Both the position numbers and the translations under genes were made by a program. DNA of 15,275 nt from a virus (taxonomy: Duplodnaviria > Heunggongvirae > Uroviricota > Caudoviricetes), in the IMG/VR virus record IMGVR_UViG_2778261031_000003. The stretch is one strand, 5' to 3'. This document shows, one piece after another, positions 2,404 through 10,789 of the stretch. How positions within the stretch are numbered: the stretch's first letter is position 1; each line of letters starts with the position of its first letter. The notes under the pieces are model-generated. The model worked only from the letters and a program-made list of their open reading frames with translations. It did no database searches and was not told the origin of the DNA.

Positions 2404-3758
<1,355 letters not shown>

Positions 3759-3921: not shown

Positions 3922-3952
3922 TGCTCTTAAAAATTAAGCCCTGAAGAAGGGC
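3922..3952 (+). promoter_or_regulatory. nutL (boxA variant tgctcttaaaaattaa, boxB gccctgaagaagggc at 3938-3952)
   Basis: Near-exact match to recalled lambda nutL; boxB is a 5-bp stem with a GAAGA loop. Confidence 0.85.
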
Positions 3953-4110
3953 AGCATTCAAAGCAGAAGGCTTTGGGGTGTGTGATACGAAACGAAGCAT
4001 TGGCCGGAAGTGCGAATCCGGATTAGCTGCAAATGAGCCAATCGTGGGGTGTTTTCGTTCAGGACTACGACTCACACACACCACCAAAGCTAACTGACAA
4101 GAGAATCCAG

Positions 4111-4434
4111 ATGGATGCACAAACACGCCGCCGCGAACGTCGCGCAGAGAAACAGGCTCAATGGAAAGCAGCAAATCCCCTGTTGGTTGGGGTAAGCGCA
4201 AAACCAGTTAACCGCCCTATTCTCTCGCTGAATCGCAAACCGAAATCACGAGTAGAAAGCGCACTGAATCCGATAGACCTTACGGTGCTGGCTGAATACC
4301 ACGAACAGATTGAAAGCAACCTGCAACGTATTGAGCGCAAGAATCATCGAGTTTGGTATAGCAAGCCAAGTGAGTTCGGTATAACTTGTCAAGGAAGACA
4401 AAAGGTTAAAGGGAAATCCATTCCATTGGCATGA
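4111..4434 (+). CDS. N: Antitermination protein N (107 aa)
   Basis: MDAQTRRRERRAEKQAQWKAANPLLVGVSAKPVNRPILSLNRKPKSRVESALNPIDLTVLAEYH... matches recalled lambda N, including the arginine-rich N-terminal motif. The track ORF start at 4033 is an upstream extension. Confidence 0.9.
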   Translation: MDAQTRRRERRAEKQAQWKAANPLLVGVSAKPVNRPILSLNRKPKSRVESALNPIDLTVLAEYHEQIESNLQRIERKNHRVWYSKPSEFGITCQGRQKVKGKSIPLA

Positions 4435-4442
4435 GGTACGTA

Positions 4443-5312
4443 ATGAAGAAAATTGATTACAAGTCCATACCAAAACCAATAGACTCAGCATCAGAGCGAA
4501 AAAAACACAAAAAAGAGGCTGAAAAATTAGCAAATTATATCAGTTTTATTAGAAACAATGCTCACGGCGATGGCGACAGGAAGTTGCTTTCAGATGCCCG
4601 GACCCAAGCGTTCAGCATACTTCGTAAGCAGATGCAATATCGTCTTCATCCAGGCTACATAATTGAAATTCGCCCGACTGAAAGACAATTGTTCTTATTA
4701 AACTCTGTCTTTGACTTTGTAAACGTAGTTGGAGATCTTATCGACAGGTCTGTAGATAAGGCTCCTGATACAAATAGTTTTCTTCTAACAAATAAAGAAT
4801 ACTTATATGGTAAATTTGGTATAAACGGATGGCAAAAATATGTACGATTCTTACGTGCATTCGTTGATGCGTATAAAAATTCCGACATGATTTATACATA
4901 TTTGCCTGGTGGTAATAATTGTACGCTTTCGGCAGACAATAGAATATTCATACCTATACTTGGTCTTGGGCTGATTAATGCAGTAAATGAAAGAGATGTT
5001 ATAATTGTTAAGCAGTGGCGAAAGCATGAGGGATATAGATATCTGCCATGCTTTGATATATTAAAAATACAGAATAAATTCTATGTGAAAATTAAATATA
5101 AAGAAGATGTTTTCTTCCTCAGAAAAAACAAAGATCTTTTACAAGAACTTTCTGGGACAATAGATGTCATCGTAGGTTCTAGGTTTATAAAAGAACTGAA
5201 AGAAAGCAGGTCTTTCTCTCGTGTAGAGATAAGCGAGTCAGAGTTATGGGGTATATCAAATAATCCTGTAAACCACGCTCACCAACGAAATCCAAACAAA
5301 AAGTGGTCATAA
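4443..5312 (+). CDS. Hypothetical protein (about 290 aa), AT-rich cargo gene A between N and cIII; candidate phage-exclusion/defence protein
   Basis: Long ORF with gaggt SD 7 nt upstream of the ATG at 4443. An alternative start at 4431 overlaps the N stop as ATGA. Very AT-rich and lysine/asparagine/isoleucine-rich; no lambda counterpart recognised. Confidence 0.7.
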   Translation: MKKIDYKSIPKPIDSASERKKHKKEAEKLANYISFIRNNAHGDGDRKLLSDARTQAFSILRKQMQYRLHPGYIIEIRPTERQLFLLNSVFDFVNVVGDLIDRSVDKAPDTNSFLLTNKEYLYGKFGINGWQKYVRFLRAFVDAYKNSDMIYTYLPGGNNCTLSADNRIFIPILGLGLINAVNERDVIIVKQWRKHEGYRYLPCFDILKIQNKFYVKIKYKEDVFFLRKNKDLLQELSGTIDVIVGSRFIKELKESRSFSRVEISESELWGISNNPVNHAHQRNPNKKWS

Positions 5313-5335
5313 CCCGCTCAGGCGGGTTTCATTTT
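5313..5335 (+). terminator. Intrinsic terminator after cargo gene A
   Basis: cccgc (5313-5317), loop tcag, gcggg (5322-5326), then tttcatttt. Confidence 0.5.
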
Positions 5336-5454
5336 CACGCAAACAATAGAATAAACACTGCACTGTGTATTCATTCCAACGAGTGAATACACGGAGCAAT
5401 GTCGCTCGTAACTAAACAGGAGTCGACTTGTTCTGATTATTGGAAATCTTCTTT

Positions 5455-5480
5455 GCCCTCCAGTATGAGGGCGATTTTTT
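5455..5480 (+). terminator. Intrinsic terminator immediately upstream of cargo gene B
   Basis: gccctc (5455-5460), loop cagtat, gagggc (5467-5472), followed by gatttttt. Confidence 0.7.
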
Positions 5481-5500
5481 ATCTGTGAGGATATGAATAG

Positions 5501-5869
5501 ATGTCAAACATCAAAAAATACATCATTGATTACGACTGGAAAGCATCAATAGAAATTGAAATCGACCATGACGTAATGACAGAGGAAAAACTTTACCAGA
5601 TTAATAATTTCTGGTCAGACTCTGAATACCGACTCAATAAACACGGCTCTGTATTAAATGCTGTATTAATCATGCTGGCGCAACATGCTCTGCTTATAGC
5701 AATTTCAAGCGACTTAAATGCATATGGTGTTGTGTGTGAGTTCGACTGGAATGATGGAAATGGTCAGGAAGGATGGCCTCCAATGGATGGTAGCGAAGGA
5801 ATAAGAATTACCGATATCGATACATCAGGAATATTTGATCCAGATGATATGACTATCAAAGCCGCCTGA
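5501..5869 (+). CDS. Hypothetical protein (122 aa), cargo gene B, acidic C-terminal region
   Basis: ORF with gagga SD about 9 nt upstream of the ATG at 5501; hydrophobic central segment and a D/E-rich C-terminus; no recognised lambda homologue. Confidence 0.65.
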   Translation: MSNIKKYIIDYDWKASIEIEIDHDVMTEEKLYQINNFWSDSEYRLNKHGSVLNAVLIMLAQHALLIAISSDLNAYGVVCEFDWNDGNGQEGWPPMDGSEGIRITDIDTSGIFDPDDMTIKAA

Positions 5870-9678: not shown

Positions 9679-10697
9679 AAAAGCTAGGGGATTTACCTGA
9701 TGTCACTTTTGAAGAGGCCTGCCTAAGATGGCTTGAGGAAAAAGCTGATAAAAAATCTCTCGATTCAGATAAAAGCCGGATTGAGTTCTGGCTTGAACAT
9801 TTTGAGGGTATAAGGCTTAAAGATATCTCGGAGGCAAAGATTTACTCTGCTGTAAGCAGAATGCATAACAGAAAGACGAAAGAAATATGGAAACAGAAAG
9901 TTCAGGCCGCCATCAGGAAAGGTAAAGAACTGCCTGTTTATGAACCAAAGCCAGTATCAACTCAGACAAAGGCAAAGCATCTTGCCATGATAAAGGCCAT
10001 TCTCCGTGCTGCAGAACGCGACTGGAAGTGGCTGGAAAAAGCGCCTGTCATCAAGATACCAGCGGTCAGAAACAAGCGAGTCAGATGGCTGGAAAAGGAG
10101 GAAGCAAAACGCCTTATTGATGAGTGCCCCGAACCACTGAAATCTGTCGTCAAGTTTGCGCTGGCAACTGGTCTGAGAAAGTCGAACATCATAAATCTGG
10201 AATGGCAACAAATCGACATGCAGCGACGAGTTGCCTGGGTGAATCCAGAAGAGAGCAAATCAAACCGCGCCATTGGTGTGGCGCTGAACGATACCGCCTG
10301 TAAAGTGTTGCGTGATCAAATAGGCAAGCATCACAAATGGGTGTTTGTACATACCAAGGCGGCTAAGCGAGCAGATGGAACATCAACGCCTGCGGTCAGG
10401 AAGATGCGCATCGACAGCAAGACATCATGGCTATCAGCTTGTCGTCGTGCAGGAATTGAAGATTTCCGTTTCCATGACCTCAGACACACCTGGGCAAGCT
10501 GGCTGATTCAGTCAGGCGTCCCATTATCAGTGCTTCAGGAAATGGGCGGATGGGAGTCCATAGAAATGGTTCGTAGGTATGCTCACCTTGCGCCTAATCA
10601 TTTGACAGAGCATGCGAGGAAAATAGACGACATTTTTGGTGATAATGTCCCAAATATGTCCCACTCTGGAATTATGGAGGATATAAAGAAGGCGTAA
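9534..10697 (+). pseudogene. int: Tyrosine integrase, P22/DLP12 (IntD)-type, 388 codons with an in-frame TAG at codon 46 (9669-9671)
   Basis: Translation from the ATG at 9534 gives [45 protein letters not shown][28 protein letters not shown]..., continuing in the same frame into the 278-aa track ORF (9861-10697), which holds the catalytic C-terminus ([10 protein letters not shown]...VRRYAHL). Recalled P22 Int has W at the position of the stop. Confidence 0.8.
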
Positions 10698-10712: not shown

Positions 10713-10789
10713 TGGCGCGCCCTGCAGGATTCGAACCTGCGGCCCACGACTTAGAAGGTCGTTGCTCTATCCAACTGAGCTAAGGGCGC
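10713..10789 (-). tRNA. argU: tRNA-Arg (anticodon UCU), argU-like; prophage integration target
   Basis: Reverse complement reads GCGCCCTTAGCTCAGTTGGATAGAGCAACGACCTTCTAAGTCGTGGGCCGCAGGTTCGAATCCTGCAGGGCGCGCCA: cloverleaf-compatible, anticodon loop CT-TCT-AA, 3' CCA encoded. The int stop lies 16 nt from the tRNA 3' end. Confidence 0.9.

Follow-up and report, generated by a model that had tools for sequence, protein, structure and literature searches.

The spacer in front of ea10 in this prophage very probably holds the prophage's own copy of the lambda small RNA PreS (LPR1), a small RNA module of the pL operon. The window (the whole 15,275-nt stretch of DNA that was analysed) had received a first-pass annotation from the sequence alone, in which this spacer was read as possibly encoding a small RNA. 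That suggestion is borne out: the RNA encoded there is an orthologue of LPR1/PreS, and positions 5394-5481 agree with lambda at 86 of 88 nt. The element is real but already known, having been described in 2024-2025 (Silverman et al., bioRxiv 10.1101/2024.10.31.621285, then Mol Cell 85:4678, 2025). Even so, the bare sequence had been enough to point out a genuine regulatory RNA gene, one that escaped notice for about 40 years in the best-studied phage and is still passed over by genome annotation. Beyond the 2024 preprint, our additions are modest: a covarying hairpin at the 5' side of PreS, diverged P22-like variants, and the complementarity to the dnaA-dnaN junction retained by those of the variants that were examined for it.

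Genomic setting of the spacer

In its gene content the window is a lambdoid prophage; its immunity is of the 434 type, and its pL operon lies on the + strand. The annotated records of lambda, 434 and 21 identify the region as the early-left (pL) operon (+ strand here), and the order along the window is cI, nutL, N, gene A, spacer, ea10 and cIII thermosensor, followed by kil, gam, bet and exo. The 434-type cI lies at 2725-3357 (+). The nutL boxB element (AGCCCTGAAGAAGGGCA, 3937-3953, +), the site where N loads on the pL transcript, matches the annotated nutL stem-loop of phage 434 exactly. The antiterminator N follows at 4033-4434 (+; Pfam N36, E = 2.9e-26), and the records of phage 434 and E. 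coli AR_0369 give it the same name. Beyond the spacer lie ea10 (gene B of the first-pass annotation; Pfam DUF2528, E = 6.6e-46; lambda ea10), with its ribosome-binding site GAGGA at 5487-5491 and its reading frame at 5501-5869 (+, ATG at 5501), and the cIII thermosensor (Rfam RF01804, 5929-5987, +).

Gene A (4431-5312, +) occupies the slot held by ral in lambda. It encodes 293 amino acids of a family to which no function is assigned (phrog_12139, E = 3e-203; CPT_434_48 in phage 434), with a Nun-like C-terminal peptide, and has neither a Pfam nor a PADLOC match. Its start overlaps the stop codon of N (ATGA, 4431-4434), an arrangement that suggests translational coupling. In residues 274-293 (...NPVNHAHQRNPNKKWS) the protein matches the C-terminal peptide of Nun, the termination factor of HK022 (phrog_5632, E = 4e-5), while the rest of it matches phrog_12139 only. 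A Nun-like, RNA-polymerase-arresting tail on a larger protein encoded beside N may serve an exclusion function. Elsewhere in the window, a perfect 10-bp palindrome with a 6-nt loop at 2759-2784, between divergent cI-type (+) and cro-side (-) frames, is probably a 434-type operator. At the end of the pL-side arm, a tRNA-Arg(UCU) gene (10713-10789, -) adjoins an open reading frame of 278 amino acids (9861-10697, +), probably marking argU as the site of prophage attachment, the integrase being short or truncated.

When the segment 5250-5560 was compared with phage genomes by BLAST, 327 records matched. Phage 434 spans the entire segment at 97.1% identity; lambda and many Stx phages match 5341-5560 at 97.7% identity, the lambda part being 34064-33845 (lambda position = 39405 - window position). 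The spacer, 5341-5500, corresponds to the intergenic region between ral and ea10 of lambda and is 97.7% identical to it. Homology with lambda begins at 5341, directly past the gene A terminator.

Comparison of the spacer with lambda PreS

In lambda, LPR1, since renamed PreS, is an RNA of about 88 nt that is trimmed to a stronger species of about 68 nt on northern blots, and it is located between ral and ea10 with its 3' end at tL2a (bioRxiv 10.1101/2024.10.31.621285). It is detected within 10 min of the cI857 shift and is absent in lysogens, its expression requiring RecA-dependent cleavage of CI (bioRxiv 10.1101/2024.10.31.621285). The RNA binds Hfq and has dozens of targets, mostly of the host; it raises dnaAN-gfp about 4-fold and lowers alaS about 2-fold, both effects being backed by compensatory mutations, and in structure probing it exposes the dnaN ribosome-binding site (bioRxiv 10.1101/2024.10.31.621285). 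Deletion of the seed or of the whole gene reduces phage yield 2-4-fold in an Hfq-dependent manner and leaves less lambda DNA after UV, as measured by qPCR (bioRxiv 10.1101/2024.10.31.621285). The text of the 2024 preprint makes no mention of a 5' hairpin or of how the 5' end of PreS arises, and the full deletion made by its authors left the hairpin described below in place.

The cloning, deletion and T7 primers of these authors, together with their nucleotide numbering, allow the ends of PreS to be placed in the window at 5394-5481 (+) for the form of about 88 nt. In their primer table the 5' end, GAGCAATGTCGC..., falls on window position 5394 and the 3' end, ...GGGCGATTTTTT(A), on 5480/5481. 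Primers and numbering put the +1 nucleotide at GAGCAATG (5394), and the numbering of the alaS duplex (nt 42-56 = GAUUAUUGGAAAUCU) agrees with this. Their full deletion corresponds to 5394-5480 and their seed deletion to about 5429-5445. The processed form of about 68 nt (LPR1-S) would occupy approximately 5414-5481 (+), its 5' end following from the reported northern size only. Within PreS the window departs from lambda at 5423 (C to T) and in the terminator loop at 5464 (G to A). The seed (UUGUUCUGAUUAUUGGAAAUCUUCU, 5428-5452, +) is identical to that of lambda, including the sites of mutations M1 (5433-5435) and M2 (5443-5445). The predicted duplex of the seed with the E. coli dnaA-dnaN junction, its sequence taken from the authors' primers, amounts to -29.7 kcal/mol for the window and -29.5 kcal/mol for lambda, against about -12.6 +/- 2.7 kcal/mol for shuffled seeds. 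The position is kept as well: PreS lies in the pL operon, 5' of ea10, ends at tL2a, and the order nutL-N-cargo-PreS-ea10-cIII is preserved. The window contains no second copy. PreS has no Rfam family; with Rfam 15, only the cIII thermosensor and a tRNA pass the gathering threshold in the whole window, and the best matches within 5200-5650 remain far under it (RyhB, 18.5 bits against 55).

An RNA directly before the ea10 ribosome-binding site could instead be a cis-acting or antitoxin-like regulator of ea10 or of gene A, as the first-pass annotation had proposed for gene B, and some LPR1 partners in RIL-seq are encoded by lambda itself (bioRxiv 10.1101/2024.10.31.621285). We regard this as highly improbable. 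The lambda orthologue acts in trans and Hfq-dependently on dnaN and alaS, and the validated targets are host genes. A scan of the whole window revealed no convincing duplex of extended complementarity between the seed and ea10 or gene A: the best non-self duplex, at -26.8 kcal/mol (background -13.9 +/- 3.5 over 1520 windows), has large internal loops and lies far from both genes. The flanking genes differ between phages while the RNA stays, and no defence or toxin model of PADLOC matches either neighbour. A toxin-antitoxin reading of the two flanking genes fails in the same way, both being ordinary pL-operon slots, filled by a 434-type gene and by ea10.

The spacer had also been described as free of open reading frames. 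This holds for frames of at least 40 amino acids; there is, however, an ATG-initiated frame of 29 codons at 5399-5488, which spans the RNA and has GGAG just 5' of it, so a peptide of 29 amino acids might be encoded instead of, or besides, the small RNA. That GGAG is just 2 nt from the ATG, translation would have to cross the terminator hairpin, and at 5423 lambda and the window would encode different amino acids. Diverged types B, C and E, described below, have ATA in place of the ATG, so the frame is not conserved, and we give a peptide product hardly any credence.

Terminators and expression of ea10

The spacer lies between two intrinsic terminators, which the first-pass annotation had put at 5313-5335 and 5455-5480, in both cases within 2 nt of what was found here. 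The terminator after gene A (5311-5335, +) consists of a 7-bp stem with five G-C pairs (5311-5328) and an interrupted U-tract, TCATTTTCAC; its fold has a free energy of -11.8 kcal/mol (z = -3.7). The second, tL2a (5453-5480, +), recognized by a fold scan and from phage annotations, has a stem of eight pairs at 5453-5474 with the loop CAGTAT, followed by T6 at 5475-5480. Its G+C-rich hairpin and U-tail form an Hfq-type 3' module at the 3' end of PreS. The records of phages 434, 21 and HK106 mark a terminator at the same site; in lambda (tL2a, about 33952-33925), the stem and U-tract are identical to those of the window at the homologous position, while the loop differs by one base. Luk and Szybalski (1983) reportedly recognized tL2a as the first terminator site within the tL2 cluster of lambda's pL operon. 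Silverman et al. equated it with the 3' end of LPR1 (bioRxiv 10.1101/2024.10.31.621285).

The ribosome-binding site of ea10 lies 6 nt past the U-tract of tL2a. In lambda, RNA polymerase carrying N from nutL reads through the pL terminators, tL2a included. A consensus scan detected no sigma-70-like promoter between gene A and ea10, nor one upstream of 5394. The anatomy of the operon thus indicates that ea10, behind tL2a, is reached by N-antiterminated pL transcription. N-antitermination and an internal promoter had both been offered as ways of expressing gene B; the former is upheld by the position of tL2a in the pL operon with nutL and N upstream, and the latter found no sigma-70-like site in its favour. 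The terminator at 5311-5335 implies that PreS itself requires read-through to be made, and its lytic-only, RecA-dependent expression fits the need to read through past gene A's terminator.

A hairpin at the 5' end of PreS

A perfect 9-bp repeat, GTGTATTCA/TGAATACAC, is present at 5365-5373/5384-5392, exactly where an inverted repeat had been reported (5365-5392), and as RNA it is longer. The RNA fold extends it to a 14-bp stem, 5363-5376/5381-5394, that includes two G·U pairs and is capped by a CAAC loop, and to which two further G-C pairs can be added (5360/5397 and 5361/5396). The resulting stem-loop of 14-16 bp, H0 (5360-5397, +), carries PreS +1 to +4 (GAGC) on its 3' strand, where they pair with GCAC at 5360-5363. 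The repeat is not the body of the small RNA: PreS starts directly 3' of it, the overlap between the two being limited to PreS +1 to +4. Upstream of H0 is an A-rich leader of the PreS module (5341-5359, +), conserved and with a GAAUAA motif at 5349-5354; it starts where lambda homology starts.

Taken by itself, a perfect 9-bp repeat is not beyond chance in 15 kb: three such repeats with a loop of at most 12 nt were observed in the window against 0.77 +/- 0.99 in shuffled sequences. The significance of H0 comes from its fold energy and from the comparative data rather than from the bare repeat. The fold has a free energy of -20.2 kcal/mol (z = -6.7), and none of 200 shuffles was as stable.

Comparative analysis of the hairpin

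Copies were gathered with the conserved 5' segment of PreS as the pattern, yielding at least 120 IMG/VR loci and 26 genome-contig matches, to which phage records were added; the resulting alignment, A2, comprises 101 distinct sequences. H0 occurs at one position in four stem versions: that of lambda (GUGUAUUC), that of mEp043 and ST64T (UAUAGCAG), that of ES18 (UAAUGCGG) and that of L060 (UAAUGACC). Its base (GCAC...G.GAGC) and tip (AUU...AGU) are conserved across all of them. In A2, 98.5% of the cells of the 16 H0 pairs are paired, eight pairs are altered on both sides, and up to five pair types occur at a single position. When the partners are slid against each other, pairing falls to 32-52% for the whole structure. 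RNAalifold recovered the stem independently. The covariance and fold comparison across homologous loci that had been recommended as a check shows the H0 stem kept by pairing in related phages. In the variant L080, the A·A mismatch and the U·G at the base of H0 are replaced by Watson-Crick pairs, in which PreS +2 and -1 (a G) take part.

The H0 cells contain 204 G·U combinations against 2 A·C, and this excess identifies H0 as an RNA read from the + strand. By the same asymmetry, a DNA palindrome and a minus-strand RNA were ruled out as readings of H0. The four versions represent few independent events, but each stem replacement swaps about eight consecutive pairs with pairing kept. At least three such replacements have affected the eight base pairs in the middle of the stem, while base and tip stayed constant. 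Such a pattern would imply selection on shape together with some pressure for stem diversity. H0 types and PreS body types assort independently.

These data also bear on whether PreS is a transcription unit of its own, with a promoter that overlaps H0 and is silenced in lysogens by a protein bound to the palindrome as operator. The edge of the palindrome coincides exactly with the 5' end at 5394, and PreS is off in lysogens and on after induction, both of which would fit. However, no sigma-70-like -10 or -35 element precedes 5394, and no -10-like hexamer recurs at a constant distance in all four H0 versions. A protein-binding site should keep its sequence; here the sequence changes and the pairing stays, with the G·U bias of a + strand RNA. 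The requirement for RecA-dependent CI cleavage is that which pL would have as well. A promoter at H0 is in our judgement quite unlikely.

Side observations were made at several loci. In HK022 (L004, 100-143 and 1201-1312) an IS903 element sits inside H0; both halves contain the same 9 bp (window 5371-5379), the overlap that target duplication by IS903 should leave, and the insertion parts PreS from its 5' arm and from pL. Just 5' of H0, the motif (C)GAATAA is found in most contexts, with GAGTGA in the ES18 type. Its TAA is the stop codon of the upstream gene in Sf101 and mEp043, and the motif resembles an RNase E site (GA|AUA).

Diverged variants and distribution

Beside the lambda type, A, four diverged types of PreS body (B-E) were found in ES18, ST64T and other P22-like or unclassified phages (L006, L007, L030, L052, L060, L094, L114, L130 and others in A2). 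Types B, C and E have an altered seed (GUUCUGGUUAAUCGAAAAAUC...); an additional small hairpin (AUCAUCCCUUGAU or a near match) and a terminator of its own are present in every one of types B-E. For types B, C and D the predicted duplexes with the dnaA-dnaN junction are -34.8, -34.3 and -29.9 kcal/mol, against -15 to -16.5 +/- 3 kcal/mol for shuffles, and the complementarity reaches further upstream. Diverged variants that match dnaN suggest that a boost to the host sliding clamp is widespread among lambdoid phages. The survey in the preprint counted matches of at least 92% identity only (bioRxiv 10.1101/2024.10.31.621285).

Within PreS, RNAalifold prefers GAGC/GCUC and AACAGG/CUUGUU, with one compensatory pair. 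The minimum-free-energy stem of lambda PreS, GUCGCUC/GAG.CGAC, is broken in the diverged types and was set aside. So was a long-range helix, AGAAUAA/UUGUUCU, by which the precursor would keep the seed hidden: folding predicts it for the lambda-type context and not for the 'CGAATAAGCAC' contexts, where GCGA/UCGC takes its place.

PreS has different neighbours in different phages: ral, gene A or others on its upstream side, and on its downstream side ea10, a gene like Sf6 gene 33, the superinfection-exclusion gene of ST64T, or cIII directly. The left borders of homology lie at 5341, 5350, 5360 and 5394, the right ones at 5480-5500. Compared across phages, the PreS unit behaves as a mobile cassette in a fixed slot. 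The region was found in 2239 of 5426 complete E. coli genomes (41%), in up to six places per genome, 20 of the places being on plasmids. Among the 40 records listed, none has an annotated RNA feature under PreS and one shows an overlapping CDS. Alignment A2 could seed an Rfam model.

Some of the genome-contig matches (L133, L135, L137, L143, L155 and others) come from assemblies of Pseudoxanthomonas, Shewanella, Bradyrhizobium, Pseudomonas, Bacillus relatives and others; coverage is low and several contigs are of about 48.4-48.5 kb. These look like contamination with lambda control DNA, not real prophages. Overall, the genome-contig matches are mostly lambda contamination, plus four chance matches.

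Proposed maturation and function of PreS

Transposing the lambda experiments to the window on the strength of near-identity, an Hfq-bound RNA of about 88 nt (5394-5481) would end at the tL2a hairpin and U-tail and be trimmed to about 68 nt, appearing only after the repressor is inactivated. Its single-stranded seed (5428-5452) would pair with the dnaA-dnaN junction and open the dnaN ribosome-binding site, raising DnaN, and would pair with alaS to lower its expression. As in lambda, PreS should support phage DNA replication and yield, and loss of the seed should lower both. The anatomy of the operon, read together with established lambda biology, suggests that PreS is cut out of the pL transcript. 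N-modified RNA polymerase coming from nutL would pass the gene A terminator; transcripts that stop at tL2a, or read-through RNA trimmed back to tL2a, would supply PreS, and transcripts that continue past tL2a would serve ea10, cIII, kil, gam, bet and exo.

From the comparative evidence we infer that H0 is part of the module and of the precursor, and delimits the 88-nt PreS on its 5' side. Its most likely role is that of a processing or insulating element in PreS biogenesis. By analogy with DicF, an RNase III-type cut at the 3' base of H0 may give the 88-nt form, and a second cut, of RNase E type, the 68-nt form, in which the seed would be freer. The duplex that fits into RNase III is of about 22 bp; the enzyme makes staggered cuts, the positions between them being well paired, with an in vivo preference for a G-C pair there. 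In the lambda-type context the H0 duplex covers 22 positions, 82% of them paired, with G5365-C5392 between the putative cuts. Duplexes in the other contexts have 14-16 bp, and the mEp043-type H0 has a mismatch and a G·U between the putative cuts, with no G-C pair there. The shorter stems and the mEp043 pairs make RNase III a candidate, not a conclusion.

The main alternative to RNase III processing is a protective or insulating role, in which H0 is chiefly a stability element rather than a cleavage site. It might be a 5' stem-loop guarding a longer PreS precursor after the leader is cut at GA|AUAA, or a 3' hairpin shielding the upstream cargo mRNA from exonucleases. The conservation of (C)GAATAA just 5' of H0 in most contexts would agree with this, as would the upstream genes of Sf101, mEp043 and BP-4795, which end at or beside the motif and have no terminator of their own, and the shortness of the stem for RNase III. 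The reported species, on the other hand, are of about 88 and 68 nt, not about 125 nt, and the upstream message already has a terminator hairpin at its end in the window, in 434 and in the lambda-type context. On balance we consider a mainly stabilizing function unlikely, although a good deal less so than a promoter at H0.

A more specific proposal, which we put forward tentatively and hold to be somewhat more doubtful than probable, treats H0 as an obligatory part of a portable cassette made up of the GAAUAA leader, H0, the PreS body and tL2a. In this cassette H0 would hold the 5' end of PreS in a duplex and direct a DicF-like maturation by RNase III and then RNase E, and the diverged P22-like cassettes would still target dnaA-dnaN. 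If true, the cassette would give the same small RNA behind any cargo gene of the pL operon. H0, having been spared by the published deletion, offers a handle on the excision of PreS from the pL transcript.

Comparison with other small RNAs of lambdoid prophages

Hfq-bound RNAs of lambdoid prophages were reported by Tree et al. (2014), and none of their EcOnc RNAs maps to the PreS site of Sakai prophage Sp5. One of them, EcOnc20, maps in Sp5 upstream of N (NC_002695, Sakai, 1255628-1255753, -) and appears to be the pL leader and nutL region rather than a separate small RNA gene; EcOnc22 maps in the tail genes of Sp15. Martinsohn et al. (2008) name ea10 only as an insertion site for constructs, and the text of the 2026 preprint on the Pas small RNAs contains none of the names PreS, LPR1 or ea10.

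AgvB and AsxR (EcOnc01/02) resemble PreS in being Hfq-bound small RNAs at fixed slots of lambdoid prophages, but they occupy the moron slot downstream of pR', measure 51-60 nt and sponge host small RNAs. The CA-rich leader had prompted their consideration as the identity of the spacer RNA, which their position downstream of pR' rules out. StxS of the Shiga-toxin phages and the lambda 6S RNA are made, like PreS, where an antiterminator-controlled transcript meets a terminator (tR' and Q in their case, tL2a and N here). They differ in belonging to the late operon, in starting at the promoter pR' with no need of 5' processing, and in being unrelated to PreS in sequence.

DicF, from the dicBF operon of the Qin prophage, is like PreS a small RNA that lies within an early operon under repressor control in a lambdoid prophage. 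It lacks its own promoter; its 3' end is formed by termination, its long form by RNase III and its short, active form by RNase E. The two RNAs share no sequence similarity, PreS gives no match to the Rfam DicF model, and the targets differ, ftsZ and manX for DicF against dnaN and alaS for PreS. The closest known system is PreS of lambda itself, with which the window shares the locus, both ends, the seed, tL2a and the predicted dnaN pairing; upstream of PreS, lambda has ral where the window has the 434-type gene A.
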